From Clostridia bacterium (GTDB lineage Bacteria; Bacillota; Clostridia; UMGS1883), in the NCBI GenBank assembly GCA_045545295.1, contig JAZQAO010000036.1, forward strand, positions 139,029 through 203,028: a stretch of 64,000 nucleotides of DNA, written 5' to 3'. Shown piece after piece: positions 42,050-63,268 of the stretch (position 1 is its first letter; each line of letters starts with the position of its first letter). The position numbers were made by a program, and so were the translations under genes. The notes below the pieces were generated by a model, which saw nothing but the letters and a program-made list of their open reading frames with translations, was not told the origin of the DNA and did not search any database.

Positions 42050-43021
42050 TTAATATCCAACCTTTTCCCAGCATTCGAAGGGAGCAGCGAGTTCTTCGCT
42101 GATGTAAACCTGAGTCTTCTTTGTCTGAAGCATTGAAGAGGGAAGATAAGGTGTGATAGGACCGTGTGTGCAAAGACGGCTTGTCATTCTCTGCCATGAA
42201 GAGAATGTACCGCAGGTTGCAAGTGCGTGAACTTCGATTCTTTCCTTAGCACGCATTACATCGAGAGGTCCGATAGTTGCAGCACAGGGAGGAACATTAG
42301 CGATATCACCTGACTGACCGAATGTACCGTTAAGTGAGTTCTGCATAATTGTCATGGGATGAAGCTTAACAATCTGTGCAGGCTGGTTGAGCCATTCTTC
42401 GATGTCACCGCTTCCGATGAATTCAGGAATAGGATCAACAAATGCCATATGACCTGCCCATCCGGGAGATGTTGATGCGATATCAGCACCTGTACCTTCT
42501 GTGATATCATCAATAATCTTGGAGTAATCCTTGATGTTTGCATTTGTGGGGAAGTGAACGTTTTCCATAGGCATACGGAGCTTTTCATCGATCTGACCGT
42601 AAAGGTACTTAATCATAGAATGAGCAAAGCCTGCTTCGTATGTGATAGGAGCGATGTTTCCGTTTTCGTCAGCCCATTCGTCCTCTGCTACAAGGTGAAC
42701 CTTGCTACAGTCAACACCGAAGTAGTTAATAAGCTGTGCAAGAGGGATATATGTATCAGGCTCGGGATTGCCGAGGATCATAGTAAAGCTCTTACCTGCT
42801 TCTGAAGCAGCTCTGAGACGCTCAAAAAGTGTTGCGATGAGAACAGGATGGGGGTTCATCATAACCTTTACGTTGAACTCCGGATGCCACCAGTCTTCTC
42901 TCTTCTCAAGGTCCTTGCCGCTAAGGCTACGAACGTATTCACAAACCTTCTTGTCCTTGAAGGGGACAAACTCATGAGGCTGGAAATCAAATTTTGTTGC
43001 GGGATCTGTAATAAAACTCAT
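42050..43021 (-). CDS. Glucosamine-6-phosphate deaminase / 6-phosphogluconolactonase superfamily protein (NagB-like, extended)
   Basis: The ATG at 43021 follows AAGGAGAAG; the track start at 43066 adds 15 poorly supported codons. TMILGNPEPDTYIPLAQLIN, VHLVAEDEW and GADIASTSPGWAGHMAFVDP resemble the sugar-phosphate isomerase/deaminase fold. Confidence 0.5.
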   Translation of the reverse strand: MSFITDPATKFDFQPHEFVPFKDKKVCEYVRSLSGKDLEKREDWWHPEFNVKVMMNPHPVLIATLFERLRAASEAGKSFTMILGNPEPDTYIPLAQLINYFGVDCSKVHLVAEDEWADENGNIAPITYEAGFAHSMIKYLYGQIDEKLRMPMENVHFPTNANIKDYSKIIDDITEGTGADIASTSPGWAGHMAFVDPIPEFIGSGDIEEWLNQPAQIVKLHPMTIMQNSLNGTFGQSGDIANVPPCAATIGPLDVMRAKERIEVHALATCGTFSSWQRMTSRLCTHGPITPYLPSSMLQTKKTQVYISEELAAPFECWEKVGY

Positions 43022-43066
43022 TTTTTTCTTCTCCTTTATTTTATAATTAATTAAATTTTTTACCAT

Positions 43067-43250
43067 ATAGAAAATTGAGTATTCTATCGCGAGGCGCTTC
43101 GTCCTTTTTTTAATTTATGGGAAATTGCGTTTTTTATCGCGAGCAATATTTGTGGGTTTTAAGTTAAGTTTGGACGCGACGTGGGTGAAGCGGCACGCTT
43201 CTTTTTTATTCAGTCGGGACGCGAAATGGGTGAAGCGGCACGCTTCTTCA
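43067..43250 (+). repeat. D-family repeat units (2-3 degenerate copies)
   Basis: GACGCGACGTGGGTGAAGCGGCACGCTTCTTTTTT (43173-43207) and GACGCGAAATGGGTGAAGCGGCACGCTTCTTC (43218-43249) match the core of the 63.6-kb tandem array. The upstream GAAAATTGAG...TATCGCGAGGCGCTTCGTCCTTTTTTT is a diverged unit. Confidence 0.65.
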
Positions 43251-44384
43251 ACTTAACTGTTCACCGCCAAGGATAACGTGCTTAACATCAAACTGATGGT
43301 CGACAAATATAAGGTCGGCACGTCTGCCTTTTGCGATTAAGCCTCTATCAGTAAGTGAAAGAAGCTTTGAGGGGTTAGTGGATGCATACTTGAACACATC
43401 GCACACTGAACCGCCTGTGTGTACCATCATATTGTGGCACGCTACATCAAGGGTGAGCTTGCTTCCTGCGATGTCACCGCCCCAGTCGAAGTTGATGTCG
43501 TGCGCTTCTTCAAGACCGGGAATCGGAGGACCGTCTGCAACGAACGCATCGGCAATCAGGATGATTTTATCCTGTCCCTTGATTTTCTTTATAAGTCTGA
43601 TGTTATAGGGGTGAACGTGTACACCCATTGAATCGCAGATGATTTCCGCGTAAATATCCTGGTTGTAGTTAACTGTTTCATCAACACATACGCCACGCAC
43701 CTCGGGATAATTTTCAAGAGTACCTGTTGCATTTGTGTGGTGAGTACCAAGCTTAAGACCGTAGGGCATAAGTGCCTCAATCTGTGCGGGAGTAGCCTCT
43801 GAATGAGCTACAGAGAACACAATTTCGGGAATTTCACGTTTTACATACTTAACGAAATCTTCAATTCCCTCTCTTTCGGGGGCTACGCACCAAACCTTTG
43901 CAAAGCCTTTTGCAGCCTCAACAATTTCAGCGTAGTCCTTTTCAACAATGGCATCTTTCCATACGTTCTTTTCCTTATCACAACCAAAGTCGGGGTTAAG
44001 GTAAGGTCCCTCCATATAAACGCCCATAAGGTTACGGCATTCACCGTTTGCGATTGCTTCGCGGTATTTCCTGAAAGTTTCAAGATGCTCTTCCTTATTC
44101 ATACTGTAGAAAAGTGCGGGAAGAACAGAAGTAACACCGTGCTTAAGAAGTGTTCTTGAACACTTAACGGGGTCTTCGTGGAAATATGTTTCACCGTCAG
44201 CGTGAGTGTGGATATCAATAAGACCGGGACCAACATAAAGCCCCTCTGCATCAATAACCTCACAACCGTCAGGAATAGGTAATTTTTTGCCGAAATCAAC
44301 TATTTTTCCGTCCTCCATAAGGATTACGGCATCGGGAATATAGTGGTCAGCCATAACAAGAATTGCATTTTTTACAGCAAGCAT
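43248..44384 (-). CDS. N-acetylglucosamine-6-phosphate deacetylase-like amidohydrolase (NagA family)
   Basis: PGLIDIHTHADG, YMEGPYLNPDFG, VAHSEATPAQ, GTHHTNA, AEIICDSMGVHVHP and LIADAF are colinear with the conserved NagA blocks. Confidence 0.6.
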   Translation of the reverse strand: MLAVKNAILVMADHYIPDAVILMEDGKIVDFGKKLPIPDGCEVIDAEGLYVGPGLIDIHTHADGETYFHEDPVKCSRTLLKHGVTSVLPALFYSMNKEEHLETFRKYREAIANGECRNLMGVYMEGPYLNPDFGCDKEKNVWKDAIVEKDYAEIVEAAKGFAKVWCVAPEREGIEDFVKYVKREIPEIVFSVAHSEATPAQIEALMPYGLKLGTHHTNATGTLENYPEVRGVCVDETVNYNQDIYAEIICDSMGVHVHPYNIRLIKKIKGQDKIILIADAFVADGPPIPGLEEAHDINFDWGGDIAGSKLTLDVACHNMMVHTGGSVCDVFKYASTNPSKLLSLTDRGLIAKGRRADLIFVDHQFDVKHVILGGEQLS

Positions 44385-44388
44385 AGTC

Positions 44389-45732
44389 TTATTTCAAGCT
44401 TGTAAGAAGCTCTTTTCCTTCCTTAATGATAAATTCGGCAACGCCTGCCTTGAAGCGTGAGCTTCTTGCCTCATAACCGCCCTCATCATAAGAGTCCTGC
44501 ATGGGGAAGTAACCCTCACTACCGTTTGAAAGACAACAGGGAAGAACCATACCGAAGCCTTCTGTAGCCTTAAGACCTACACCGATACCTGTGAAAGGCT
44601 CACCGGGGATACCGATGATTGCAACGGGACCAATCTTAAGTGCTGAAAGACGCATATCAAATGCATCGGGACCGTTTTCAAGTCTTACCATTCTGCCTGC
44701 TTCTGCAACAACAGTTGTAAGCATCATACCTTCATAGGGAAGCTCACTGTCCTTACCTGCGTTGTGGAGGTCGTTAATTCTGTGAGCCTCGGGCATATCC
44801 TTGGGGTCAGGTCTGTTTGAGGGAACGTTAATAACAATCTGCTTTGATACAAGGCTGTCAACGTCAACATACTCAACCTTGTCATAAGCCTGAAGTACAC
44901 CGCCTGTAACAACTCTTGCAATATATTTTGCGTGAGCGTAACCTCTTGATACGTCGTCAAAGTCCATAAACATATCGTTGAGGTAGCCGCCTGTGGGATG
45001 AACGTTGACGTGGTTTACATCGCCCTGTGCACCGTTGAAGAAGATACACTTTGTGTTGTCAAGAATCTTTTCAACAGTACCGCGGAGAAGTCCGGGCCAG
45101 TCTGCAGAAATCTTACAACCGCCAACAACGTCGGGATGGTTTGCAAAGTTTACGTATACGATAGACTCTGCACCCTCACGGTCAAAACGCATTACGTTAA
45201 CGCTTTCATCAGTGTCACCAATAGGACGAACAATATCGGGGTTGTTAACACCGGGGTTAGTTTTGATGCTGCCGTCACGCATTACATAGCGACGAACAAA
45301 TGCAACATTGGGTGCAGTACCCTTACCGTAGCCCATCTTTGCATCCTTGAGGTCCTCGAGTGCGAACTGTGCGGCATCTACAATCTTACGGCCGACAAAA
45401 GAAGTATATTCCTTTACAAGCTCATTTTCAGTCACTCTTTCAAGTGCGGGAGCAGTGTGGGTATGTGTAGCTGAAATAATGATGTTTTCCGCAGGAACAC
45501 CCGTTGCATCACTGATTGCTTTTATGTAGTCGTTACAAAGATTCTGCTCAATACCGCAGTGGTCAACTGTGATAAGAAGTGTCTTTGTATCCCCTGACAC
45601 AAGTGCAAGAGCGTTAATCTCAAGCTCGTCAAGAACTCCATCGGCAAAACGGGGCTTGAAATAGCCGCGAATCGGAATGCCCATAGGAGGGGTTATATTT
45701 ACTCTGCCAAAACCGGCTTTTAGATTGTTCAT
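44389..45732 (-). CDS. Neutral/alkaline ceramidase-like N-terminal-domain protein (paralog 1 of 3)
   Basis: GFGRVNITPPMGIPIRGY, DELEINALAL, ISATHTHTAP (THTH metal motif) and FANHPDV. RBS GGAGG. No signal peptide. Confidence 0.55.
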   Translation of the reverse strand: MNNLKAGFGRVNITPPMGIPIRGYFKPRFADGVLDELEINALALVSGDTKTLLITVDHCGIEQNLCNDYIKAISDATGVPAENIIISATHTHTAPALERVTENELVKEYTSFVGRKIVDAAQFALEDLKDAKMGYGKGTAPNVAFVRRYVMRDGSIKTNPGVNNPDIVRPIGDTDESVNVMRFDREGAESIVYVNFANHPDVVGGCKISADWPGLLRGTVEKILDNTKCIFFNGAQGDVNHVNVHPTGGYLNDMFMDFDDVSRGYAHAKYIARVVTGGVLQAYDKVEYVDVDSLVSKQIVINVPSNRPDPKDMPEAHRINDLHNAGKDSELPYEGMMLTTVVAEAGRMVRLENGPDAFDMRLSALKIGPVAIIGIPGEPFTGIGVGLKATEGFGMVLPCCLSNGSEGYFPMQDSYDEGGYEARSSRFKAGVAEFIIKEGKELLTSLK

Positions 45733-45789
45733 TTAAAAAACCTCCAATGTTTTTGTCCGAAAGTACGGACAGTATATTATTACTACTAA

Positions 45790-45818
45790 ATAATATCATT
45801 AAAAAACGGCTCTGTCAA
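45790..45818 (-). promoter_or_regulatory. Candidate sigma-A promoter for the operon 45732->42050
   Basis: Minus strand TTGACA (45818-45813), 17 nt, TATTAT (45795-45790). Confidence 0.55.
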
Positions 45819-45895
45819 CACGAAAAACAGCGAAAACTTCTTTTAAGACTGAAAAATTTTAATTTCGAATAGGTTTCGGTAATGAATAAAACTGA

Positions 45896-45940
45896 AACAA
45901 AATAATAAGAGGATGTAAAAATTGGTTTTTTTACATCCTC
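45896..45940 (-). terminator. Rho-independent terminator after the DMT permease gene
   Basis: Perfect 13-bp stem GAGGATGTAAAAA/TTTTTACATCCTC (45909-45921 / 45928-45940), followed on the minus strand by TTATTATTTTGTTT. Confidence 0.75.
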
Positions 45941-45945
45941 CGGTA

Positions 45946-46794
45946 CTAAATGCTAAGAAAAATTATTGCCAGTATTCCCATAATAAATCCGCATAATTGG
46001 TTTTTTGAAATTTTTTCCTTATAAACAAGAAGTGATATTAAAAACGTTACGATTATTCCTCCCGCGGAAATAAGGGGAAACATTATCGATGCAGACATAC
46101 TTTCCGAAAGAATCATAACAAAAAGATTGACGATGCCTGCCATAATCCCGGATATACCTGCAGGAATCCATATATGTCGCATTACCGGTTTCAGAGATGT
46201 TCTTTCTTTTAACAGCGAAACGGTAAAAAGAAAAACAGTTACAACAGCAAGCGCGATTATCATAAATTCATTTTTATACTCTCCGTTAAATTTCACCTGC
46301 TGCATTTTCTGAAATACGGAGCACATCCCATTACCTAAAAAGGCAAGAAAAACATAAAGAACCCAGCGGGGTGTGGAAGTATAAGCTTCATTTTTTTTGT
46401 TAATTAAAAACAGTGAAACAGCAAGTATAACTATTCCGACAGGAAGAAAAACAGAGACAGATTCCTTTAAAAAAATAATCCCGTAAAACGTCGGTAACAT
46501 AAGAGAATAAGAAGTTACAAGTGACGTTAGCGAAAGTGAACCGCATTCTATGGCAAGAGTTAAAAAAAGTGTTGCAACAAGAAAAGATCCTGCAAATAAT
46601 ACTGAATAAATCAGCATTCCGGGAACCCACCGGAACGTTTTTGTTGTTATTATAAAAAACAGCATAGCAAAAAAAGTTGTCAGCGCGGACAACAAATAAA
46701 CACCGGTATTTCCGGCTTTTTGAGTGTAATATTTTTTTGATATATTTTGTGCTGCGACACCTGTTATGATAGAAATCAGAAGTAAAGTATTCAT
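45946..46794 (-). CDS. DMT/EamA-like 10-TM permease
   Basis: 282 aa, hydrophobic throughout. RBS AAAGGAAA. Same architecture as 20866..21750. Confidence 0.55.
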   Translation of the reverse strand: MNTLLLISIITGVAAQNISKKYYTQKAGNTGVYLLSALTTFFAMLFFIITTKTFRWVPGMLIYSVLFAGSFLVATLFLTLAIECGSLSLTSLVTSYSLMLPTFYGIIFLKESVSVFLPVGIVILAVSLFLINKKNEAYTSTPRWVLYVFLAFLGNGMCSVFQKMQQVKFNGEYKNEFMIIALAVVTVFLFTVSLLKERTSLKPVMRHIWIPAGISGIMAGIVNLFVMILSESMSASIMFPLISAGGIIVTFLISLLVYKEKISKNQLCGFIMGILAIIFLSI

Positions 46795-46812
46795 TTAGTT
46801 TTCCTTTCTTTG

Positions 46813-46841
46813 TTGCATTTTCTTCCCTCTAGTGATAAAAT
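46813..46841 (+). promoter_or_regulatory. Candidate promoter of the PocR-AraC regulator gene
   Basis: TTGCAT (46813-18), 17 nt, TAAAAT (46836-41), then RBS GGAGGGA and the GTG at 46863. Confidence 0.45.
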
Positions 46842-46862
46842 GACATAAAAGGAGGGAGAAAA

Positions 46863-47657
46863 GTGTACATAAAATATAATATAGAAAAGCTTGGAAGTAT
46901 TCTTAATGATTTATCTGTTCTGACAGGAATAAGCATTGCTTTCCTTGATTGTGAACTGAATCGTCTGTGCGGAAGTGTAAAGGAAAACGATTTTTGCGAA
47001 AAAATGCAGAAAAATGAAGAATTCCTGAAAAAATGTATATGTTCCGATAATGACATAATTGAAAAATGCAACAAAACAAAATGTTTTGAAAATCACATTT
47101 GCTATGCCGGATTGTACGATGCGTCTCTACCTGTAGTTGTAAACGGGGTTACAGTCGGTTTCATAATTATGGGCAGAGTGCGTACTGACTTATCTCCCAA
47201 AGAATGCTTCTTTACTGACAGCGAAGAATTGAGGAAACTTTACTGTGAGCTTCCGTATTTTTCCGATAGTCAGCTTCAGAGCCTTAAAACCCTGCTGCCA
47301 AGCATACTGTTTGCAGATGCAATAAATTTTGAACTTGATGAAATTTCAGAAAAAATGGCAGAATACATCGAAAGCAATCTGACGGAGGATTTGAGCATTA
47401 GCAATCTTTGTAAAAAGTTTTTTGTATCAAAAAATTTTCTGTACAAATGCTTTAAGGAGCGCTACTCAACAACGGTGAATGAATACATAACGTCAGTACG
47501 TCTTAAAGAAGCGAAAAAGCTTCTTTTGAAAACTAAAGACCCAATATTTCTCATATGCGAAAAAGCAGGAATTCCGAATTACACATATTTTTGCAAACTT
47601 TTTAAAAGAAGAGTAGGGATGAGTCCCGTTGAATTCAGGAGAAATCACTCAAAGTAA
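46863..47657 (+). CDS. AraC-family transcriptional regulator with an N-terminal PocR-like sensory domain
   Basis: The N-terminus LSVLTGISIAFLD...C..FC....C.SD is PocR-like. The C-terminus has two HTH units (LSISNLCKKFFVSKNFLYKCFK; ICEKAGIPNYTYFCKLFKRRVGMSPVEFR). Confidence 0.7.
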   Translation: MYIKYNIEKLGSILNDLSVLTGISIAFLDCELNRLCGSVKENDFCEKMQKNEEFLKKCICSDNDIIEKCNKTKCFENHICYAGLYDASLPVVVNGVTVGFIIMGRVRTDLSPKECFFTDSEELRKLYCELPYFSDSQLQSLKTLLPSILFADAINFELDEISEKMAEYIESNLTEDLSISNLCKKFFVSKNFLYKCFKERYSTTVNEYITSVRLKEAKKLLLKTKDPIFLICEKAGIPNYTYFCKLFKRRVGMSPVEFRRNHSK

Positions 47658-48577
47658 GATTTAAGAAATTCTGCCAAAGTACCGTCGTACTCAGCTTCGC
47701 ACATATAATAAAATCCAAGCTGATTTCCGCTAGCATAGTTGATATACACTTTACCGTTGTAGTCGCACATATCAATGTCGGAATTATTGATTATAAAACC
47801 GGTGGTTGTTATTTTTTCAATAAGTTCATCGTCAAGGTCAGCCGCTCTGGGAGAAATAAGACGGTCATTATTATCGGGCATCAGAATAGGATTGTAGTAG
47901 CCTACATACCAGTCTTCAAAATCTTTTGTACGGTAAATATAGTTTGTATAGTGCTGACACGGCAGCTCTGTTACAGAAATAACATAATACCACCCTTCGC
48001 TGTATTTCATCCAGGGACCGCCCATATAACGTTCCTTTGAAAATCCTTTGTCATAGTCCATAAATGTCCACTCTTTAAGGTTCGGAGAAGTAGCGAAAAA
48101 CAAGGTAAAGGGGAATTTTCCCACGTGTTCCTCGGGGTGGCTTGCCTCCATAAGAAGTACATAGCCGTCAGGACCTTTTGTAAGAGATGTGTTGTAATAC
48201 ACCCATCCCGGATTTGTAAATAGCGGTCTGTTTGACCATTTTATGAGGTCTGTGCTTTCATAGATGCGGATAGTGCCTCTGTTTTTCATATCTACCCCAA
48301 GAACGTAAGCGGTGCCGTCTTCAATGTAAGCAGAATGAAAATAGCTGTCCTCTGCAAGAGTAGATATTATTTTACCGCTTTCAACATCTCGGATTACTGC
48401 ATATCTCAAAATTGTCGGATCAGTCCCGTTAAGCGGGTCAAAAAGCTCCATACGCATAAGCTTGCCATTCCAGACAAAGGGTGTCATTTCTCCGTTCGGA
48501 CTACAAGCACCAAGCTTTTTGATTTCCGGAAATCGATTTTTCATTATGGTGTTTTTATCATAATTGAATTCAGCCAT
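47645..48577 (-). CDS. Hypothetical protein, possibly a five-bladed beta-propeller glycosidase-like fold
   Basis: The ATG at 48577 is 8 nt after AAGGAG. Repeated W/Y-rich beta-strand blocks (IRIYESTDLIKWSN, LFFATSPNLKEWTF, GWYYVISV). No family motif was recognised with certainty. The 3' end overlaps the convergent AraC gene by 13 nt. Confidence 0.3.
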   Translation of the reverse strand: MAEFNYDKNTIMKNRFPEIKKLGACSPNGEMTPFVWNGKLMRMELFDPLNGTDPTILRYAVIRDVESGKIISTLAEDSYFHSAYIEDGTAYVLGVDMKNRGTIRIYESTDLIKWSNRPLFTNPGWVYYNTSLTKGPDGYVLLMEASHPEEHVGKFPFTLFFATSPNLKEWTFMDYDKGFSKERYMGGPWMKYSEGWYYVISVTELPCQHYTNYIYRTKDFEDWYVGYYNPILMPDNNDRLISPRAADLDDELIEKITTTGFIINNSDIDMCDYNGKVYINYASGNQLGFYYMCEAEYDGTLAEFLKSYFE

Positions 48578-48589
48578 TCTATCCACTCC

Positions 48590-50473: not shown

Positions 50474-50502
50474 TTGAAATGAATAGAAAAATGCAGTATA
50501 AT
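50474..50502 (+). promoter_or_regulatory. Candidate sigma-A promoter of the FucI-like gene
   Basis: TTGAAA (50474-79), 17 nt, TATAAT (50497-502). Confidence 0.6.
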
Positions 50503-50533
50503 AAATTTATATTATTCTGAAAGGATGATTTTT

Positions 50534-53507: not shown

Positions 53508-53524
53508 AACGGAATGTTAAAAAC

Positions 53525-53564
53525 AAAAAAACTGCGATGTGGATTTCCACATCGCAGTTTTTTT
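53525..53564. terminator. Bidirectional Rho-independent terminator between convergent genes
   Basis: AAAAAAACTGCGATGTGG-ATTT-CCACATCGCAGTTTTTTT: an 18-bp perfect palindrome arm with an A-tract on one side and a T-tract on the other. Confidence 0.85.
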
Positions 53565-53575
53565 GTTTTTAAATA

Positions 53576-55105: not shown

Positions 55106-55153
55106 AATAGACAACTCCTTATATTTTAGTTTTAAATTTAATGTGTTTGTAAA

Positions 55154-55317: not shown

Positions 55318-56919
55318 TTAATCAATCTCGCCGCCTGCGGCTATTATGGAAAGTTCCCTTCTTGTAAGAACTCTGCCGTATTTATCGTCCTCAATTATAT
55401 CGGGTTTAACGATAAATTTACCTTTCTGCAGGTGACAAAGCTCAATAATTTTATTGAAATACTCAAGAACTTTTGCATTTCTCTTGAAATCGTTTCTGTA
55501 AAGCTCACCGTCGATAACTGCACGAAGGTAAATCATCTGCCACTTTTTAAGATTGCGGATTTCTTCGGGAAGTGATGCATCAACTTCAACAATTGCCTTT
55601 TCAATTTCGGGAATACCTTCGGGATTGTCGATGGGATAACGGTGTCCCGGCTCAAATCCGCGGTGGAGAGTTTTTTCCATAGCAAAGATTGCATCGTGTG
55701 CTTTCTGAAGAAGCTCGCCCTCAAGTCCGAATTCGTAAGAAAGATATTCTTTTATAGTATCGGATGCACTCTGTCCGTCGCGGTATAAGCGAAGCATAAC
55801 CACCTTGTTGATTTCTTCGTAGAAACCTTCAGAATAGGGCCAACCGCCTGCAAGCTTGTCACCGTCACGGTCCCAAAGCTCCTGCAAAAGTGCGGGGATG
55901 GGGTTAGAACCGTAACCGCCCCAGGGAAGAATATCGCACATACTGATTTCGGGAAAACCGAGGATAGGTCTTCTCATACCCTTTTCAAAGGCGTAACGCT
56001 GATACTGGGGTTCTGCAACAAGGTACTTACATTCGCTGAGTCTGCCTTCGTCCATAACTTTATTCATCATCTCAAACTCAACATCGGTTTCGGTAAACGT
56101 ACCGAACTGCCAGAGTGAAAGAACAAGGTCTGTATTGGGCATATATTCCTTAACCATGGGGATAATTGCTTCAACGGTCTTTATATAGCCGTTACCGCCC
56201 CAGGGAGCACACTTACTGCAACTGCAACCGCCCTCGTCATAAGGTGTGATTGAAAGGTAGTCAAGCTGAAGGTCCTTGAAGGTTTCAAACCAGCTTCTGC
56301 GGTATTCAAGGATTTTTTCAAGTCCGCCCGGTTTGTTGGGGCAGATTTCTACATGGTAGTGTCCCTGAAGTACATTTACATATCCGTCGTGGCCCGGTGT
56401 CCAGTCAGCACGAAGCTGTTCGGGACTTGTTCTGAACGCTTCGTTTGAAATAGTGGTCATCATAATTTTAAGACCAATGGATTTGGCGTAACGCAGGATT
56501 TTCTTAAGACGCTCTGCATATTCCTTGCCGTCCTCCATACTGTCAAAATAGTACATATCAAACCACATGCGAAGCATATTTGTACCCCAGAGGGCAATAT
56601 CGTCAATATGGCGGTATATTTCTTCAAGGGGGGCACATTCGTAGTAGTTGTGATTATGGGATGCAAAATACATTGCACAAATTTCTTTTTTTGACTTGAA
56701 TGTACCGTTTTCGATTTTCGGATTTCGTATAAATCTTCCAAGGGTGTTGAGAAGCTCGGAATAAGAGCCTGCACTGATTGCACCGTCCTCAATTTTTCCT
56801 TCAAGTTCGGAAAGAGAATCGTCGATTAAAAGGGTAATGTCGTATTTTCCTTTAAGTCTGTCTTCTGCAATTCTTGCAATGTTAGAAAGGGTTTTGTCCG
56901 CTTTGTTATAAGTAATCAT
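55318..56919 (-). CDS. Hypothetical TIM-barrel glycosidase-like protein with a CxCxxC motif
   Basis: MMTTISNEAF (possible NE acid/base) and YDEGGCSCSKCAPWGG (a Cys cluster reminiscent of the Zn site described in GH42 enzymes). RBS AAAGGAG. No signal peptide. Confidence 0.35.
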   Translation of the reverse strand: MITYNKADKTLSNIARIAEDRLKGKYDITLLIDDSLSELEGKIEDGAISAGSYSELLNTLGRFIRNPKIENGTFKSKKEICAMYFASHNHNYYECAPLEEIYRHIDDIALWGTNMLRMWFDMYYFDSMEDGKEYAERLKKILRYAKSIGLKIMMTTISNEAFRTSPEQLRADWTPGHDGYVNVLQGHYHVEICPNKPGGLEKILEYRRSWFETFKDLQLDYLSITPYDEGGCSCSKCAPWGGNGYIKTVEAIIPMVKEYMPNTDLVLSLWQFGTFTETDVEFEMMNKVMDEGRLSECKYLVAEPQYQRYAFEKGMRRPILGFPEISMCDILPWGGYGSNPIPALLQELWDRDGDKLAGGWPYSEGFYEEINKVVMLRLYRDGQSASDTIKEYLSYEFGLEGELLQKAHDAIFAMEKTLHRGFEPGHRYPIDNPEGIPEIEKAIVEVDASLPEEIRNLKKWQMIYLRAVIDGELYRNDFKRNAKVLEYFNKIIELCHLQKGKFIVKPDIIEDDKYGRVLTRRELSIIAAGGEID

Positions 56920-57145: not shown

Positions 57146-59104
57146 TTAATTCTTTAAAATAAGATAATACATTGAACGAGATTCACTGCCGAGAGAAATA
57201 GTAAGTTTACCATTCTCATACTTTGTGGGAACCATACCGATATAGAATCCTTCGGGACTGATACCCCATACTTCATAAGTGGAGATGGGTGTTTCAATTT
57301 CGATTTCCGCCTTGATTGATTCTATCAGAACGGGGGCTTCTCCGTATTCTATCATCTGGTCACCAACGAATTTTGCACCAGTATTTTGTGCTCTGCCCAC
57401 GGTGGTGAGAAGAATATTTGAAGATTCTGTTATTTTTTCGTCTGTAAGGGAACTCATTGCAATAACTGCAAAATCTGTTTCTGCCGTTACCTTAACGCCT
57501 GAAAGGTCGATTGTGCCGTTCTTTGCAAGGAAGCCGTAAGCACATTTTGTGCCGTCTGTGTCAATGTAGCCGTAATTCTTTTCACGGCTGATGAAAAGCT
57601 CACCTGTATCTGAAAGAATATTTCCGTCAACCTTAACGGGCTTATCCTCTGCGAATTTGTCAAAGCTGTATTCAGAATATACTCCGTGACGCTCGATAGC
57701 ATTAGCAAGGTCGGCATCGTTAAATTTTGTTTTTGAAATGTGGCTGTATGTCTTAAATTCGTTAGCCTTTTTAACATCTCCACGTCTTGTCATAATAGCT
57801 GCGTGATAGAAAAGACCAAACTTTGCGGGGTCATTCCAAGTGCTGAAAATACCCTGACGGTAGGGAGTTCCACCAATCTTTTCGGAATAGATTTCTCTGC
57901 CGAGAATGTCCATTCTTTCAAGGCGTGCACTGTATGAATATGTGTGGATTGCATAGCCGTTCCACCCTTGTAAAAGTCCCAATGCCGCAGTGTAAAGAAC
58001 ACCGTCTGCACGATATTCGTTAGGCCAGGGAACGTCCCACTCGGAAATATATGTAGGCTTGTTTTCTGCACTCATATAAGCGCCTGTGAGAAGATATGTT
58101 TCATTTGCTTGAGTTACGGACTTGTTTTCGCAACACTTCCTGAATTCTTCCCAGCAACCCCATGTGTAGTAGTAGGGATGTGTGTCGATGTAATCTGCAC
58201 AAAGCTGTGTCTTTACGTTTGCAGGCACGATAGAGTGGTTTGTTCCGTTGAGAGGAATTTTAATTCCGATTTCACGCATATAGGAAAACATTTCCTCGTA
58301 ATACTTTTCCTGAATATATATTTTGAAATCAACGATAGTTTCGTTTTCGCTATCGTTTTTAAAGTCAAAATCGGCTGATGTCTTGTCGTAGCCGTTTTCC
58401 TTGAGCCACTTATCGAAAAGGGCAAGGATTTTTGTGTTGTAAGGCTCGGGGAAAGGGAACTTGAAATGGAATGAGAAGAGGTCACTTTCATTACAAACCT
58501 CTGCAAGAACGAATATGGGGTCGTCGCAGTAACGAAGATCTGTGTAGGGGTTTTCGTGTGTCCATAAATCCTTACAGAGTTTTTTCTGCAGGTCAATCAG
58601 TGTCTCGTCAAAATAGTTGACAGGCTTTGCAGAATCGCCCAGAGCTTTTGCATTTTCAACGCCCTCTTCCGCACGGAAACGTCTGTATGTGAGCATATCC
58701 ATATAGCAATAGATACCCTCTTTTTTAAGACAGTAAATAAGGTAGTCAAGTCTGTCCATGCTTTCGGGGTCAAGAGTGGCTCCTGTCATTTTCTTACCTT
58801 TTGTAAAAGCAAAGATGTTTGGAGTGTGCCACTCGGCGTCAAGCTGGTGGAATCTTACAAGGTTAAGACCGATTTTACTGAGTCTTTTTGCAAGGATTTC
58901 TGCATAGTCGTGTTCAGGAAAGCATCCCCAGCCATTGAAGTTTGTTCCCCAGAACTTCACCTTTGTGCCGTCCTCGAAAACGAAATCTCTGCCGTCAACC
59001 TTAAGAAAACCGTGCTTACCTGCAGGCTTTTCATCCTCAAACATAAAAGATATGTCAATGGGTACATCATCGTGATAAAACGGATATGGAATAAATTCGG
59101 TCAT
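57146..59104 (-). CDS. Clan GH-A (GH5-like) glycoside hydrolase, tandem paralog A
   Basis: KFWGTNFNGWG, LNLVRFHQLD, EVCNESD (NE acid/base) and YISEWDVPW (candidate nucleophile E). No signal peptide. RBS AAAGGAG. Confidence 0.5.
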   Translation of the reverse strand: MTEFIPYPFYHDDVPIDISFMFEDEKPAGKHGFLKVDGRDFVFEDGTKVKFWGTNFNGWGCFPEHDYAEILAKRLSKIGLNLVRFHQLDAEWHTPNIFAFTKGKKMTGATLDPESMDRLDYLIYCLKKEGIYCYMDMLTYRRFRAEEGVENAKALGDSAKPVNYFDETLIDLQKKLCKDLWTHENPYTDLRYCDDPIFVLAEVCNESDLFSFHFKFPFPEPYNTKILALFDKWLKENGYDKTSADFDFKNDSENETIVDFKIYIQEKYYEEMFSYMREIGIKIPLNGTNHSIVPANVKTQLCADYIDTHPYYYTWGCWEEFRKCCENKSVTQANETYLLTGAYMSAENKPTYISEWDVPWPNEYRADGVLYTAALGLLQGWNGYAIHTYSYSARLERMDILGREIYSEKIGGTPYRQGIFSTWNDPAKFGLFYHAAIMTRRGDVKKANEFKTYSHISKTKFNDADLANAIERHGVYSEYSFDKFAEDKPVKVDGNILSDTGELFISREKNYGYIDTDGTKCAYGFLAKNGTIDLSGVKVTAETDFAVIAMSSLTDEKITESSNILLTTVGRAQNTGAKFVGDQMIEYGEAPVLIESIKAEIEIETPISTYEVWGISPEGFYIGMVPTKYENGKLTISLGSESRSMYYLILKN

Positions 59105-59123
59105 AAAATTTCTCCTTTAATAA

Positions 59124-59203
59124 GTTCGAAATGTAAAATTCGAAATGATGGTGGGTTTTCTCCGAAAAGAAAACCTTTAATTCCGCATTCCGCATTTCGC
59201 ATT
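59124..59203 (-). repeat. C-family repeat, short variant (C3)
   Basis: GTTCGAAATGTAAAATTCGAAATGATGGTGGGTTTTCTCCGAAAAGAAAACC...TTCCGCATTCCGCATTTCGCATT. It abuts the stop codon of 59202..61154. Confidence 0.65.
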
Positions 59204-61154
59204 AGTTTTTAACTATCAAGTAATACATTGACCTTGACTCTGTTCCGAGAGAAATAGTAAGTTTACCATCCTCATACTTTGTGGGAACCATACCGATGTA
59301 GAAACCTTCGGGACTGATACCCCATACTTCATAAGTGGAGATGGGTGTTTCGATTTCAATTTCTGCCTTGATTGCTTCAATAAGAACGGGTGCTTTGCCG
59401 TAGTCCATCATCTGGTCGCCGACGAACTTGGCGTCAGTATTTTGTGCTCTGCCCACAGTGGTGAGAAGAATATTTGAAGATTCGGTGATTTTTTCATCTG
59501 TAAGTGAACTCATTGCAATAACTGCAAAGTCTGTTTCTGCTGTCACCTTAACGCCTGAAAGGTCAATAGTACCATTCTTCGCAAGGAAGCCGTAAGCACA
59601 TTTCGTGCCGTCTGTGTCAATGTAGCCGTAATTCTTTTCACGGCTGATGAAAAGCTCACCCGTATCGGAAAGGATATTGCCGTCAACCTGCTGAGGCTTT
59701 TCATCTGCAAACTTGTCAAAGCTGTATTCTGAATATATACCGTGCTTTTCTATTATCTCTGAAATATCGGGCTTGTTAAACACGGTTTTTGAAAGATGGC
59801 TGATAGTTTTGAATTCGTTTGCCTGCTTTACGTCGCCACGTCTTGTCATAATTGCCGCATGGTAGAAAAGACCGAACTTTGCAGGGTCGTTCCAGGTGCT
59901 GAAAATACCCTGGCGGTAAGGTGTGCCGCCGATTTTTTCGGAATATATTTCTTTACCGAGCATATCCATTCTGTCAAGACGGGCAGTGTATGAATATGTG
60001 TGGATTGCATAGCCTGACCAGCCGTGAAGAAGACCTATTGCAGCAGAGTAAAGAACACTGTCTGCACGGTATTCGTTAGGCCATGGAACATCCCACTCGG
60101 AAATATATACGGGTTTGTTTTCTACACTCATACAAGCAATCTTATCAAGGTATGATTCGTTTGACTGTGTTATGGATTTATTCATACAGCATTTGCGGTA
60201 TTCTCCCCAGCTCCAGTCATAGTAATATGTATGACCGTCAGTGTAATCTGTTCCAAGCTGTGTTTTTACGTTTGCAGGAAACATCGCCCAATTTGTTCCG
60301 GTGATAGGGATTTTTATTCCGATTTCACGCATGTAGGAAATCATATCTTTGTAATGGGTTTCGTGAAGATACATCTTGAATGCAAGAAGTGTTTCATCCT
60401 CTTTACTTGTAAGGTCAATATCGGCGGATGTTTTATCGTAACCGTTGTCTTTGAGCCACTTGTCAAAAAGATTAAGCATTCTTGTCTGATACGGCTCGGG
60501 GAAGGGCATTGCCCAGTAGTGCGAGAAGCAGTCGCTTTCATTGCAAACCTCTGCAAGCACAAAAACCGGATCATCGCAGTAACGTAGTCCCGTATAGGGG
60601 TTTTCGTGTGTCCATAAGTCCTTACAGAACTTTTTCTGAAGCTCAATAAGCTTTTCGTCAAAATAATCAAGGGGCCTTGCCGCATCAACAAGAGCTGCCG
60701 CATTTTCCACACCTTCCTCTGCACGGAATCTGCGGTATGTGAACATATCCATATAGCAGTAGATACCCTCTTTTTTAAGGCAATAAATAAGGTAATCAAG
60801 CCTGTCAATACTCTCGGGGTCAATCTGTCCGCCTGGCATTCTCTTACCTTTTGTAAAAGCAAAAATATTGGGAGTGTTCCACTCGGAATCAAGCTGATGA
60901 AATCTTACAAGGTTAAGACCGATTTTGGAAAGCCTTTTTGCAAGCTTCTCGGCATAGTCGTGCTCGGGAAAGCATCCCCAGCCGTTAAAGTTCGTTCCCC
61001 AGAATTTTACCTTTGTGCCGTCCTCAAAAACAAAATCTCTGCCGTCTGTCTTAAGAAAACCGTGCTTTCCTGCAGGTTTCTCATCCTCAAACATAAATGA
61101 AATATCAATCGGGACATCATCGTGAAAAAACGGATATGGAATAAATTCGGTCAT
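59202..61154 (-). CDS. Clan GH-A (GH5-like) glycoside hydrolase, tandem paralog B
   Basis: The ATG at 61154 follows AAAGGAG; the track start at 61199 adds 15 codons inside the promoter region. Colinear with paralog A along its whole length. Confidence 0.5.
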   Translation of the reverse strand: MTEFIPYPFFHDDVPIDISFMFEDEKPAGKHGFLKTDGRDFVFEDGTKVKFWGTNFNGWGCFPEHDYAEKLAKRLSKIGLNLVRFHQLDSEWNTPNIFAFTKGKRMPGGQIDPESIDRLDYLIYCLKKEGIYCYMDMFTYRRFRAEEGVENAAALVDAARPLDYFDEKLIELQKKFCKDLWTHENPYTGLRYCDDPVFVLAEVCNESDCFSHYWAMPFPEPYQTRMLNLFDKWLKDNGYDKTSADIDLTSKEDETLLAFKMYLHETHYKDMISYMREIGIKIPITGTNWAMFPANVKTQLGTDYTDGHTYYYDWSWGEYRKCCMNKSITQSNESYLDKIACMSVENKPVYISEWDVPWPNEYRADSVLYSAAIGLLHGWSGYAIHTYSYTARLDRMDMLGKEIYSEKIGGTPYRQGIFSTWNDPAKFGLFYHAAIMTRRGDVKQANEFKTISHLSKTVFNKPDISEIIEKHGIYSEYSFDKFADEKPQQVDGNILSDTGELFISREKNYGYIDTDGTKCAYGFLAKNGTIDLSGVKVTAETDFAVIAMSSLTDEKITESSNILLTTVGRAQNTDAKFVGDQMMDYGKAPVLIEAIKAEIEIETPISTYEVWGISPEGFYIGMVPTKYEDGKLTISLGTESRSMYYLIVKN

Positions 61155-61183
61155 TGCAAAAATCTCCTTTTTGAAATTTATAC

Positions 61184-61212
61184 TTGCATTATACCACATC
61201 TTCGTCTATAAT
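61184..61212 (+). promoter_or_regulatory. Candidate sigma-A promoter of the AraC gene 61269..62054
   Basis: TTGCAT (61184-89), 17 nt, TATAAT (61207-12). Confidence 0.6.
61188..61198 (-). promoter_or_regulatory. Candidate extended -10 promoter (TGgTATAAT) for the GH operon 61154->55318
   Basis: Minus strand TGTGGTATAAT. The TATAAT (61193-61188) overlaps the -35 of the divergent promoter. The leader to the ATG at 61154 is about 27 nt and contains an RBS. Confidence 0.5.
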
Positions 61213-61268
61213 CTAGTTAAAACAATGCAAAAAACCAATGAAAAACAGCACTTTTTTGGAGGGAAGCT

Positions 61269-62054
61269 ATGAAAGCTACGTTTGAAAACAATGATGTATT
61301 GCTTTGTGCGGAGAGTGGGAGAAGTATGCCGGGTTACCCGATGCAGTTTCATACTCACGCAGAAATTATATATATTATATCGGGAACTGTGACTATAACG
61401 GTTGACGGGATAAAACGCACGCTGAAAGCAGGACAGATGAGTATTTGCTTCCCCTATTCTATGCACGAATATGAAGAAAGTCCCGATTCAAAAATATTAC
61501 TTGTGCTTTTTTCAGCAAGTGCGACAGGTGTTTTTGAGCAGGATTTACTTACGAAAAAACCCGTTGTTCCTTATATTGAGGACGGGACGGTGCTTTACGC
61601 TACTCTTTGTAAAATTGTTGATTTTAAGAAAAAAGGCAAGGAGTACGAAAAAATTGCAATGGCATATCTTTGTGCCGCGGTGGGGGAAATACTGTCACAT
61701 CTTTCCCTTTATGATATTGAAAGCACCGACACGGGCACAATTCAGAAAATTCTGATATACTGTACCGAAAATTTCCGTGACAGCGATATGTGCCTTGACA
61801 AGGTGGCGAAAAATCTTTTTATCAGCAAAAGCTATATCTCCAAAATTTTTGCAAAAAAGCTTAAATGTAATTTCCGTGAATATATAAACTCTCTGCGTGT
61901 TAATGAAGCAAAATCACAGCTTGAGGGAACAGATTTCAAGATAATTGACATTATGGAAAACTGCGGATTTAAAAATCAGAGCAGCTTTAACCGTGTGTTT
62001 TTTGAAGAGTGCAAAGTAACGCCGCGGGAATACAGAAAAGAGAAGAAAAAGTAA
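61269..62054 (+). CDS. AraC-family transcriptional regulator (cupin-like N-terminal domain + two HTH units)
   Basis: HTHAEIIYIISGTVTITVDG is cupin-like. C-terminal VAKNLFISKSYISKIFAKKL and IMENCGFKNQSSFNRVFFEECKVTPREYR. RBS GGAGGGA. Confidence 0.75.
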   Translation: MKATFENNDVLLCAESGRSMPGYPMQFHTHAEIIYIISGTVTITVDGIKRTLKAGQMSICFPYSMHEYEESPDSKILLVLFSASATGVFEQDLLTKKPVVPYIEDGTVLYATLCKIVDFKKKGKEYEKIAMAYLCAAVGEILSHLSLYDIESTDTGTIQKILIYCTENFRDSDMCLDKVAKNLFISKSYISKIFAKKLKCNFREYINSLRVNEAKSQLEGTDFKIIDIMENCGFKNQSSFNRVFFEECKVTPREYRKEKKK

Positions 62055-62059
62055 ATAAT

Positions 62060-62092
62060 AGTACACTTTGGGGACAGTCCCCAAAGTGTACT
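62060..62092 (+). terminator. Strong hairpin after the AraC gene (possible terminator, no clear U-tract)
   Basis: GTACACTTTGGGG-ACAGT-CCCCAAAGTGTAC: a perfect 13-bp stem at 62061-62073 / 62079-62091. Confidence 0.45.
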
Positions 62093-62183
62093 AAAAACAT
62101 AAAATTATTCTGTCATTTGCGGTATGGGCGTTTTTAACATCCCATCCAGATTGGATTTTGTCCAAAAGGTTAGAATCTGTCTC

Positions 62184-62213
62184 TTGACCTTTGTTTTAAG
62201 GGGGTTGTATAAT
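62184..62213 (+). promoter_or_regulatory. Candidate sigma-A promoter of 62246..63268
   Basis: TTGACC (62184-89), 18 nt, TATAAT (62208-13). Confidence 0.6.
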
Positions 62214-62245
62214 TAAAGTAACAAAAAACAAAGGAGATGTTTGTT

Positions 62246-63268
62246 ATGGAAAAAAAGTGGGGACTTTTAGTTCATCTTGGTCGTAATATGTGGGGCGACC
62301 TTAGGGCACAGACAGAGGTTCATTTCGATATGGATGTATGGAATGACTTTGTTGACCATTGTGAGGCTAACGGACTTAATATGATTATTATGGACGTTGG
62401 TGAGGCTGTCGAGTGGGAAAGCCATCCCGAGCTTTCAATCAAGGGTGCATGGAGTAAAGAGCTTGTTAAGAGCGAGGTTTTAAGACTTCGTGAAAAGGGT
62501 ATCGAGCTTATTCCCAAGCTCAACTTCTCTAAGACACACGATGCGTGGCTTGGTGTTTATTCAAGAATGGCTTCAACACCCGAATATTACAAGGTGACAA
62601 AAGAATTAATCGAGGAAGTTTACGAAATGTTCCTTCATCCCTCAATCATACATATCGGTATGGACGAGGAAAACTGGAAGCATGCTACAGAAGGTGACAG
62701 ATCAGTTATTATGTTCCGTTCAAGTGCTCTTCAGGTTAATGATACAAACTATTTTATTGAATGTGTAGAAAACCTCGGTGCAAAATGTCATATGTGGCAT
62801 GATCCTTACTGTAACGTAAAGGAAGAAGATGCGGAAAAAATCAAAAAATCCGTTATTCCCGAGGTTTGGATGTACTATTCATACCTTAAAGAAAACTGGA
62901 CACTTATTTCCGAGCAGGACGATGAAGTAAAGGATTTCTACGCAACAGAATTTGTTCGCCGTTACGGTTACACAATCGAATATGTTGAGGAATCACCCTC
63001 TGTATTAAACGCAATCAAGCTTCTTGAAAAATTCTTCGAGGAAAAGAGACATTTCTTCCTTGCAACAAGTAACCTTTACATAAAGAACTGCGAAAAGGAT
63101 GCTATAGAATTTGTAAGAAGAAATAACCCTGACCTTTCACTTCTTGACGGTATGATTGGTGCACCCTGGGGCAGAATGTGGCCCGACAGAAAAGAGCTTT
63201 TGTGGGAAGCGGTTGAGCTTGTGGGTAAGGCAAGAAAACAAGCAGAAGAAATAATTGTGGGATGTTAA
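62246..63268 (+). CDS. Small GH20-like TIM-barrel protein (340 aa)
   Basis: The ATG at 62246 is 9 nt after AAAGGAG. WGLLVHLGRNMW, ELIPKLNFSKTHDAW and IHIGMDEENW (an H-x-G-x-D-E-like block) echo the motifs of 18417..20852. Confidence 0.4.
   Translation: MEKKWGLLVHLGRNMWGDLRAQTEVHFDMDVWNDFVDHCEANGLNMIIMDVGEAVEWESHPELSIKGAWSKELVKSEVLRLREKGIELIPKLNFSKTHDAWLGVYSRMASTPEYYKVTKELIEEVYEMFLHPSIIHIGMDEENWKHATEGDRSVIMFRSSALQVNDTNYFIECVENLGAKCHMWHDPYCNVKEEDAEKIKKSVIPEVWMYYSYLKENWTLISEQDDEVKDFYATEFVRRYGYTIEYVEESPSVLNAIKLLEKFFEEKRHFFLATSNLYIKNCEKDAIEFVRRNNPDLSLLDGMIGAPWGRMWPDRKELLWEAVELVGKARKQAEEIIVGC

Follow-up and report, generated by a model that had tools for sequence, protein, structure and literature searches.

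The question raised by a 64,000-nucleotide stretch of a Clostridia bacterium genome (GTDB lineage Bacteria; Bacillota; Clostridia; UMGS1883; GenBank assembly GCA_045545295.1, contig JAZQAO010000036.1, positions 139,029 to 203,028 of the forward strand) is what three ceramidase-like proteins are doing among enzymes of sugar catabolism. We call this whole stretch the window and number all positions from its first letter. The three proteins, here named Cer1, Cer2 and Cer3, are encoded in a 21-kb region at 42050-63268, which an initial annotation made from the sequence alone had read as a cytoplasmic enzyme set for N-acylated amino-sugar oligosaccharides or glycolipid head groups. The relationship of Cer1-3 to the ceramidases is real but remote, and the three are probably a variant of the neutral-ceramidase kind of enzyme that acts on sugars.

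Fold and catalytic residues of Cer1, Cer2 and Cer3

Cer1 (44389-45732, minus strand; 447 amino acids), Cer2 (52017-53507, plus strand; 496 amino acids) and Cer3 (53576-55114, minus strand; 512 amino acids by open reading frame (ORF), or 509 from the ATG used in the public record, P0273, which is 100% identical) are homologous to one another. Pairwise BLAST aligned Cer2 with Cer3 at 30% identity (E 4e-67) and Cer1 with Cer2 at 21% identity (E 4e-13). The motifs quoted in the initial annotation are present as written, ISATHTHTAP in Cer1, VGATHTHTS in Cer2 and MNATHTHCGP in Cer3. Against the neutral ceramidase family PF04734, Cer1 scored 29.2 bits (gathering score 32.1) and Cer3 16.4 bits (0.004), likewise below the gathering score, and Cer2 had no Pfam match, PF04734 included. 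The NCBIfam ceramidase model NF041649 gave 16.7 bits against a threshold of 1200. Searches of the PDB with single protein sequences returned marginal ceramidase matches for Cer1 (4wgk at 0.0016) and Cer3, and none for Cer2.

The relationship emerged from a family profile and from a structural model. A profile made from a 41-sequence alignment that covers the Cer1, Cer2 and Cer3 families (A1; residues are numbered as in Cer2) matched human neutral ceramidase (4wgk) at 1e-7 over a region spanning the THTH and Glu/Tyr/Tyr motifs. In this alignment THTH fell over THTHSGP, and the E...Y...Y block fell over the ceramidase Glu/Tyr/Tyr, with the two tyrosines 12 residues apart in both. An AlphaFold2 model of Cer2 (pLDDT 81, pTM 0.86) was compared with the PDB by Foldseek, which retrieved only the Pseudomonas and human neutral ceramidases (2zws, 4wgk and 2zxc; E 8e-21 to 1e-18, TMq 0.62-0.66). 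The best match was 2zws (E 7.8e-21, TMq 0.66), and the next match after the ceramidases had an E of 0.03. The fold was modelled for Cer2 and is extended to Cer1 and Cer3 through their homology with it.

Nine positions, H90, H92, R177, R178, D243, D271, E425, Y455 and Y467, are invariant in 41 of 41 A1 sequences, and two more subfamilies, CerX and CerY, retain the same residues. The column of PaCD His204, the second zinc ligand, is His in the Cer1 family (FANHPD) and Cys in the Cer2 family, where it is invariant in the sampled sequences (IACPAQ in the window protein). Cys also occupies this column in the window Cer3 (VPCPSQ) and, with a single exception, in the further Cer3, CerX and CerY sequences that were looked at (VPCTAQ is also seen); one Lentisphaerae Cer3-like paralog has Ala there.

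Set beside the neutral ceramidases (PF04734; P. aeruginosa CDase, 2zws and 2zxc; human, 4wgk), Cer2 shares the fold, the T-H-x-H motif, the Arg, the Glu and the two Tyr at 12-residue spacing, and Cer1 keeps the second His, but the structural alignment of Cer2 with these enzymes shows 12-14% identity. Ceramidases carry a C-terminal immunoglobulin-like domain, with solved chains of 630-690 amino acids, whereas Cer1-3 lack it at 447-512 amino acids; no second Pfam domain was found in any of the three, and models and alignments stop at the catalytic domain. Further differences are the change of the second metal-binding His to Cys in Cer2, Cer3, CerX and CerY, the lack of a signal peptide in Cer1-3 (no hydrophobic signal or anchor was seen at their N-termini), a sugar-catabolic instead of a lipid gene context, and the presence of several copies per genome. 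The view of the initial annotation that the three are divergent paralogs of neutral-ceramidase fold is thus borne out by their mutual homology, the Foldseek matches, the A1 profile and the retained catalytic constellation, and they fall in no other characterised family. By threshold, domain architecture and localisation, they are outside the ceramidase family.

The three families are large. Searches gave more than 3358 hits for the Cer2 family, the best 120 of which are all at least 71% identical, more than 5344 for the Cer1 family and more than 1749 for the Cer3 family, Lentisphaerae among the last. Nearly all of these hits are named "hypothetical protein" in their source; one UniRef entry, a Cer3 relative, bears the ceramidase family name. 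The Cer2 relatives found in GTDB species genomes (n=80) all come from metagenome-assembled genomes (MAGs) of uncultured gut Clostridia; these include Oscillospiraceae, Acutalibacteraceae, Faecousia and 'Faecalimonas', from samples of goat, roe deer, buffalo and others. Several genomes supply more than one Cer2-type locus: one MAG has three loci with four copies, and another has four loci. Multiple copies per genome are what families of catabolic enzymes tend to show.

Gene modules around the three paralogs

Cer1 is the first gene of a unit on the minus strand and is followed by genes for a NagA-like amidohydrolase (43248-44384; 378 amino acids) and, last, a NagB-like protein (42050-43066; 338 amino acids). 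The NagA-like protein matches Amidohydro_1 at 9e-19, has an HxH motif at residues 59-61, and aligns with TIGR00221 at 178.2 bits (equivalog cut-off 225.65), residues 2-374 covering positions 5-379 of the 380 in the model; judged by these profiles its assignment is solid at family level. The NagB-like protein had no Pfam match, PF01182 included, and a search of the PDB was not significant (NagB 6nbg, E 0.095). Against the NCBIfam model of glucosamine-6-phosphate deaminase it scored 23.5 bits (3.4e-5; threshold 326) over model positions 43-238 of 260. Of the NagA/NagB-like pair named in the initial annotation, the first member therefore holds as a family assignment, and the second, which reaches neither the PF01182 nor the NCBIfam threshold, is a weak one.

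Relatives of this module place Cer1 in similar company. In one locus (L085) the order is AraC, canonical PF01182 NagB, NagA-like, Cer1, so that a canonical NagB takes the slot of the NagB-like gene of the window. Of the metagenome and contig loci that were clustered together, seven have a NagA-like gene beside Cer1 or close to it, and three have a NagB-like gene there. In L093 and L103, Cer1 is flanked by a NagC-like ROK regulator (2e-44) and a carbohydrate ABC binding protein/transporter, and the operon consists of the transporter, Cer1 and NagA without a glycosidase; in L087 a GH88 gene flanks Cer1. The module recalls the NagA/NagB pathway for N-acetylglucosamine 6-phosphate, with NagA-like and NagB-like genes downstream of Cer1 and relatives that carry a canonical NagB and a NagC-like regulator, but the window locus has no kinase or phosphotransferase system gene, and Cer1 has no textbook counterpart.

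Cer2 is preceded on the same strand by a gene for a putative aldose-ketose isomerase (50525-51886, plus strand; 453 amino acids), the first gene of their unit. This protein had been described as FucI-like, and it does match Fucose_iso_C weakly, below threshold (26 bits; gathering score 29.3), and AraA_central at 18 bits; the PDB gave only AraI at E 0.1. Its best match is instead the sulfoquinovose isomerase SftI over its full length (NCBIfam, 3.8e-12, 45.7 bits, cut-off 700, model positions 48-440 of 443), and we refer to it as SftI/FucI-like. Thirty-six Cer2-type loci extend for 5 kb or more on either side of the gene; this isomerase is found no further than 5 kb from Cer2 in 28 of them, and an FGGY kinase (xylulokinase-like) in 18.

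A recurrent operon around Cer2 relatives reads [DeoR]-SIS (KpsF-like)-YjbQ-TIM (archaeal type)-FGGY-isomerase-fructose-6-phosphate aldolase (FSA)-Cer2-MFS, and a variant reads DeoR-class III aminotransferase-GFO/MocA oxidoreductase-isomerase-FGGY-Cer2-MATE. An enzyme of the FSA/TalC type occurs with the isomerase in 12 Cer2 loci. Other neighbours are GH39 together with M20, CapA-like genes, GH28, and an enolase-superfamily dehydratase, an FAD oxidoreductase and a KDPG aldolase-like protein (judged by eye). The MFS transporters beside some Cer2 relatives (L008, L010, L058, L060 and L081) have as their best NCBIfam match a conjugated-bile-salt MFS transporter (117 bits, below the cut-off), with lactate/oxalate-type carriers also found, a pattern that hints at an anionic, possibly amide-containing substrate. 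As a separate observation, the set of a single-domain KpsF-like SIS protein, YjbQ (UPF0047) and an archaeal-type TIM lies beside Cer2 in L013, L015, L018, L023, L027, L031, L035, L037, L066, L069, L070, L076 and L084; the FGGY kinase and the SftI-like isomerase are present in most of these loci too, and FSA in many, and no described pathway was matched to the set.

The nearest described parallel to the isomerase is the sulfoquinovose transaldolase pathway, in which the isomerase SftI and the transaldolase SftT act on a C6-modified hexose (PMC7491151). The isomerase with FSA/TalC in 12 Cer2 loci matches this isomerase-transaldolase pairing, but the loci described here have no sulfoquinovosidase, no sulfolactaldehyde enzyme and no sulfonate exporter, and carry an FGGY kinase and a Cer protein instead.

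Cer3 closes a unit on the minus strand that begins with two tandem genes, GHA2 (59202-61199; 665 amino acids by ORF) and GHA1 (57146-59104; 652 amino acids), whose products are 83% identical. GHA1 alone had no Pfam match, and the 19 bits that GHA2 alone scored against PF00150 fall short of the gathering score. With the profile of the family (A4), GH5 mannanases were matched at 2.7e-10 in the stretch that holds the beta-4 NE acid/base motif, with a weak match at the nucleophile; N205, E206 (acid/base) and E355 (putative nucleophile) are nearly invariant, and 9 of 35 GHA relatives match PF00150. An AlphaFold2 model from the two window paralogs reached a pLDDT of 35. On the GH5 profile match and these near-invariant residues, GHA1 and GHA2 are probably retaining beta-glycosidases of clan GH-A, in line with the two tandem clan GH-A enzymes first proposed for these genes. 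They depart from GH5 enzymes in their size of about 650 amino acids, their cytoplasmic location and an extra C-terminal beta-rich region, and both window proteins fall below every Pfam threshold. At E < 1e-3 their family numbers 5165 representative clusters, with many multidomain proteins of 800-1400 amino acids among them, and is not captured by Pfam as a family of its own; it could represent a GH5 subfamily that is still unclassified or else a new family of glycoside hydrolases.

Between GHA1 and Cer3 lies a gene for a 533-amino-acid protein (55318-56919, minus strand) with the motif CSCSKC. It had been called a CxCxxC TIM-barrel protein; the motif is present, and by a weak match to PF00150 (0.0012, residues 104-154 only) the protein is weakly GH5/clan GH-A-like.

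GHA genes adjoin Cer3 relatives in L088, L089, L130 and L131. The order AraC-GHA-Cer3 is found in L089 and L131, where the AraC protein is 42-45% identical to the cupin-AraC regulator of the window. L088 and L130, from Clostridiaceae and Eubacteriales MAGs, have a co-directional operon of LacI-isomerase (50%)-FGGY-CerX-CerY-Cer3 (55%)-GHA (52%)-GH28, percentages giving identity, that ends in a class III aminotransferase gene. In L130, a 32%-identical homolog of the 533-amino-acid protein also lies ahead of the aminotransferase, and a GH123_cat gene is present in L088. Because three Cer paralogs, the isomerase and GHA have been assembled in a distant lineage too, this arrangement argues strongly that they are functionally coupled.

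Conservation of the modules does not extend to the region as a whole. The complete 21-kb order is intact only in L005 and L006 (Cer2 90-95% identical), both of which have a single GHA copy; in L005, Cer2 and Cer3 are about 1.4 kb further apart. In L007 and L059 the NagB-like, NagA-like and Cer1 genes abut the isomerase and Cer2 genes, these proteins being 93-100% identical, and the EamA, PocR-AraC, 313-amino-acid and 515-amino-acid genes (window 45946-50137) are absent together with the Cer3/GHA arm. Since the order is kept whole only in near relatives and is rearranged in L007 and L059, the 21-kb locus is a mosaic of separately conserved modules and not one unit, and the differences among L007, L059 and L005 point to recent modular gain and loss. 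To take the 21 kb as a single unit, as had been done at the outset, was therefore an overstatement; what recurs in other genomes is the modules, and with them the link to amino-sugar and sugar genes. Neither of the two findings that the initial annotation had named as refuting its reading, membership in a different, characterised family or a neighbourhood conserved in no relative, was thus obtained.

Chemistry, substrate and rival explanations

The reading that we favour, tentatively and with somewhat less than even confidence, is that Cer1-3 are soluble cytoplasmic metallo-amidohydrolases, probably zinc enzymes, which consist of the catalytic domain only and have been recruited to carbohydrate catabolism, where they would act on a likely N-acyl amino sugar and not on ceramide. 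It builds on the observed fold, the conserved residues, the absence of signal peptides and the conservation of the modules; the identity of the metal, the hydrolysis of an amide, the class of substrate and the order of steps are what we infer from these. Judged from the fold, the metal would be held by His90, Glu425, Tyr455 and a fourth ligand, which would be His in Cer1 and Cys229 in Cer2 and Cer3. Because the full hydrolytic residue set of the neutral ceramidases is conserved, a metal-activated water would be expected to attack the amide carbonyl, aided by His92, Arg177/178 and Tyr467.

That this amide would belong to a carbohydrate follows from the cytoplasmic location of the enzymes, their multi-copy family and their uniformly sugar-related partners (NagA/NagB/NagC-like proteins, isomerase, kinase, aldolase, GH5-like, GH39, GH28 and GH88 enzymes, and sugar/anion transporters). 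Gene context suggests an amide-bearing sugar; the likeliest candidates are an amino sugar with an N-acyl group, acetyl or other, and an oligosaccharide that contains such a sugar. The group that is cut in ceramide, a 2-acylamino-1,3-diol, has its local equivalent in N-acyl-2-amino sugars, and this chemical closeness makes a switch of substrate plausible. Of the two substrates proposed in the initial annotation, the N-acylated amino-sugar oligosaccharides agree with the conserved amino-sugar and sugar gene context, the substrate itself being deduced from that context, and the glycolipid head groups find little support, since the enzymes are cytoplasmic, the transporters are of sugar/anion type and no lipid genes are present.

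Each module would then use the reaction in its own setting. Cer1 with the NagA-like and NagB-like proteins would serve a deacetylation/deamination route of the N-acetylglucosamine (GlcNAc) type. Cer2 with the SftI/FucI-like isomerase would remove the N-acyl group at the level of the monosaccharide; in the modules of its relatives an FGGY kinase is common, and FSA, TIM, SIS, or an aminotransferase with GFO/MocA join in fewer loci. In the variant with the class III aminotransferase and GFO/MocA, the unmasked amine may be removed by transamination and reduction before isomerisation and phosphorylation. Cer3 with the GH5-like glycosidases and the CxCxxC protein would deacylate an oligosaccharide that is then cleaved. 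The locus may act as the cytoplasmic back end of a secreted lyase/esterase locus upstream in the window, taking amino-sugar fragments from it.

A comparable logic is known from the archaeal chitin route, which employs the deacetylase Dac, the exo-beta-D-glucosaminidase GlmA (clan GH-A) and the glucosamine-6-phosphate deaminase GlmD (SIS). Its sequence of deacetylation, cleavage and deamination/isomerisation resembles the combinations of Cer3 with the GH5-like enzymes, Cer2 with SIS/kinase, and Cer1 with NagA/NagB. Dac has an LmbE-type fold and is unrelated to ceramidase, the archaeal route has no counterpart of the SftI/FucI-like isomerase or the FGGY kinase, and chitobiose as the substrate is unsupported here.

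Several observations weigh against the N-acyl amino sugar reading. With NagA, the Cer1 module already has a deacetylase, so that a different task must fall to Cer1; the operons of L093 and L103, which lack a glycosidase, fit the cleavage of an amide between sugar and aglycone equally well; some Cer2 relatives have M20 peptidases, class I/III aminotransferases and CapA-like genes nearby, a hint of an amino-acid moiety; and the MFS neighbours are of anion type (PgtP/UhpC; conjugated-bile-salt/lactate) and not of neutral-sugar type. No publication on these short ceramidase-like proteins came up in searches of the literature. Neutral ceramidase is not mentioned in a 2026 preprint on metal-dependent bile salt hydrolases (PMC13081902).

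Much of this evidence speaks for the main rival, somewhat unlikely in our estimate, in which the amide bond cut by the Cer proteins would link a sugar to an amino acid, a peptide or an amine. Candidate substrates would be uronic-acid amides of bacterial polysaccharides, GlcNAc-Asn, muropeptide-type lactyl amides and other glyco-amino-acid conjugates, with the freed sugar passing to the isomerase-kinase or NagA-NagB enzymes and the amino acid to aminotransferases or M20 peptidases. Near Cer2 relatives, M20 genes occur in 6 + 6 loci, class I/III aminotransferases in 6 and 8, and CapA-like genes in 5. The uronic-acid enzymes GH28 and GH88 adjoin Cer relatives, the MFS neighbours are of the anion type just described, L093 and L103 combine Cer1 with an ABC transporter and NagA alone, and the retention of NagA beside Cer1 would be expected if Cer1 were no deacetylase. 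Such neighbours are nevertheless found in a minority of loci, and the core partners (isomerase, FGGY kinase and GH5-like enzymes) give no pointer to an amino-acid moiety. The class III aminotransferase with GFO/MocA would equally fit removal of a sugar amine after deacylation, and the window locus has no peptide or amino-acid transporters. Quite unlikely, in turn, is a re-use of the fold for sugar chemistry other than amide hydrolysis, as an O-acyl esterase, lactonase/lactamase, phosphatase or metal-dependent aldolase/epimerase. Many Cer2 loci do consist of isomerase, kinase and Cer2 alone, like FucIKA trios, with FSA in only 12 loci; SASA-type esterases neighbour some loci and are also found in the first locus of the window, and the Cys ligand departs from the ceramidases. 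Yet the complete hydrolytic constellation of the ceramidases is invariant, the second His, the Arg and both Tyr included, we know of no enzyme of the neutral-ceramidase fold that performs other chemistry, and Cer proteins stand beside glycosidases and NagA/NagB, where an aldolase makes no sense. Cer2 as the missing aldolase of an isomerase-kinase trio was ranked low, as its hydrolytic residues are fully conserved and FSA co-occurs in some operons.

Whether Cer1-3 could be genuine ceramidases in a locus that degrades glycosphingolipids must be asked as well, since their only structural relatives are neutral ceramidases and the catalytic residues are conserved. GH5 includes endoglycoceramidases, so that the GH5-like enzymes would be of endoglycoceramidase/glucocerebrosidase type, and the GH20-like protein of the window locus and the GH123_cat product of L088 would trim the glycan. 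We consider this improbable: the proteins have no signal peptides or membrane anchors despite the membrane-lipid substrate, they miss the C-terminal domain and stay below the Pfam threshold, in Cer2 and Cer3 the position of the second metal ligand holds a Cys, and the family is multi-copy per genome. Their conserved partners are soluble sugar enzymes and sugar/anion transporters, and about 130 loci showed no genes for lipids or long-chain bases. An incidental co-location with no shared pathway could explain why the full 21-kb order is confined to near relatives, why the stretch from EamA to the 515-amino-acid protein, as well as Cer3 and GHA, is missing from L007 and L059, whose shared proteins are 93-100% identical, and why an insertion element of the IS3 family, suggesting rearrangement, flanks the locus. 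But each module recurs across families and even phyla, and L130 and L088 independently join the isomerase, three Cer paralogs and GHA in one direction, L130 adding the 533-amino-acid protein; this explanation is largely refuted by the neighbourhood counts, and we hold it to be very improbable. A wider proposal, possible though doubtful, extends the N-acyl amino sugar and sugar amidase readings to the short ceramidase-fold proteins as a group: Cer1-3, CerX and CerY might form an undescribed superfamily of carbohydrate-active de-N-acylases/sugar amidases, most of them with a His/Cys/Glu/Tyr metal site.

The locus in its surroundings and its significance

The region at 42050-63268 holds 15 ORFs in about six transcription units. 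The gene coordinates of the initial annotation stand, and no signal peptide is visible at the N-terminus of any ORF, as it had stated; its count of about 14 proteins is one short, and its "cytoplasmic enzyme set" includes an EamA/DMT-family membrane transporter (45946-46794, minus strand; 282 amino acids; PF00892 at 9e-11). The units on the minus strand are EamA; Cer1, NagA-like and NagB-like; the 515- and 313-amino-acid proteins; and GHA2, GHA1, the 533-amino-acid protein and Cer3. Those on the plus strand are PocR-AraC; the isomerase and Cer2; and cupin-AraC with a 343-amino-acid protein. A terminator-like hairpin at 45941-45908 sets EamA off from Cer1, another at 41962-41936 lies beyond the NagB-like end of the Cer1 unit, and a bidirectional one at 53523-53566 (20-bp stem, with A and T runs on either side) separates the convergent Cer2 and Cer3 genes. 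Promoter-like matches are as numerous as chance would predict, and only the best-placed sites are quoted, one ahead of the Cer1 unit (45818-45790) and one upstream of the isomerase-Cer2 unit (50474-50502), each with 11/12 matches. Within Cer2, a 302-amino-acid antisense ORF (52338-53246, minus strand) is of low complexity, rich in Cys, Phe and Ile, and almost certainly spurious.

Two AraC-family regulators adjoin these units. One, with a PocR sensor, is encoded at 46863-47657 (plus strand; 264 amino acids; PocR 9e-22, HTH_18 3e-18), and the other, a cupin-AraC protein, at 61269-62054 (plus strand; 261 amino acids; HTH_18 1e-19, AraC_binding 6e-7), divergent from GHA2. Both identities agree with the initial annotation, and both genes are adjacent to the locus; the statement that the set is controlled by them went too far.

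The remaining proteins are less readily assigned. The 313-amino-acid protein (47645-48586, minus strand) has a single match, to Glyco_hydro_32N (2e-4, 21.3 bits, below the gathering score, 30 residues), a hint of a GH32-type propeller by which it is possibly beta-propeller glycosidase-like. The 515-amino-acid protein (48590-50137, minus strand) had no match in Pfam, NCBIfam or other scans; both proteins are conserved only in L005 and L006. The 343-amino-acid protein (62237-63268, plus strand) matches PDB entries 9fyl and 9fym, GH20 catalytic-domain proteins from a study of GH20 lacto-N-biosidase/N-acetyllactosaminidase (PMC11776370), at 1.4e-6 over about 70 residues. This weak match agrees with its earlier description as a small GH20-like protein, to which Pfam adds no match, GH20 included. 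Relaxed Pfam scans of the 313-, 515-, 533-, 343- and 338-amino-acid proteins gave nothing further. Just downstream of the GH20-like gene and running towards the window end, a 92-nucleotide tandem repeat occupies 63638-63975 (3.7 copies, 93% matches); it had no Rfam match, and a CRISPR was ruled out by the lack of spacers.

A first locus (window 26-39895) precedes the region. Four of its proteins have signal peptides (4141, 6032, 8545 and 12192), among them one of two heparinase II/III-like/DUF4962 proteins and a SASA esterase; its cytoplasmic proteins are GH88, Amidohydro_2, GH20, EamA, two GH2, an S9 esterase, GH43, GH106-like, GH94, GH95, RhaA and SDR. It looks like a system for an acidic polysaccharide with rhamnose, fucose and N-acetylhexosamine. 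The RhaA gene (37554-38824, plus strand) is frameshifted, one ORF (37554-38036) covering positions 6-146 and a second in another frame (38033-38824) covering 153-417, which makes it either a pseudogene or an assembly error. Between the two loci, at 40168-41523, lie an IS3-family element, whose orfB (40168-41022) and orfA (41019-41282) are encoded on the minus strand, and a gene for tRNA-Arg(ACG) (41447-41523, minus strand), the sole Rfam match; together they suggest a hotspot of rearrangement or insertion.

To our knowledge, the neutral-ceramidase fold has so far been associated only with the hydrolysis of lipid amides. The families described here are uncharacterised, are represented by 1,700 to over 5,300 database hits each, are at least 70% identical across families of gut Clostridia, and lie inside sugar-catabolic operons. 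Their conserved partners, the SftI-like isomerase, the FGGY kinase, the GH5-like enzymes and NagA/NagB, make the hypothesis directly testable with a small panel of substrates. If it is true, the short ceramidase-fold proteins would be a new family of carbohydrate-active enzymes, in effect of the carbohydrate-esterase type, which would give an annotation to thousands of 'hypothetical proteins' and offer new deacylases for glycan engineering. The Cer2-isomerase-FGGY operon, with FSA, TIM, SIS or an aminotransferase and oxidoreductase, would then be a new catabolic route for amide sugars in Clostridia of the herbivore and human gut, and would partly explain how uncultured Oscillospiraceae and Acutalibacteraceae use amino-sugar-rich glycans of host, microbial or dietary origin.

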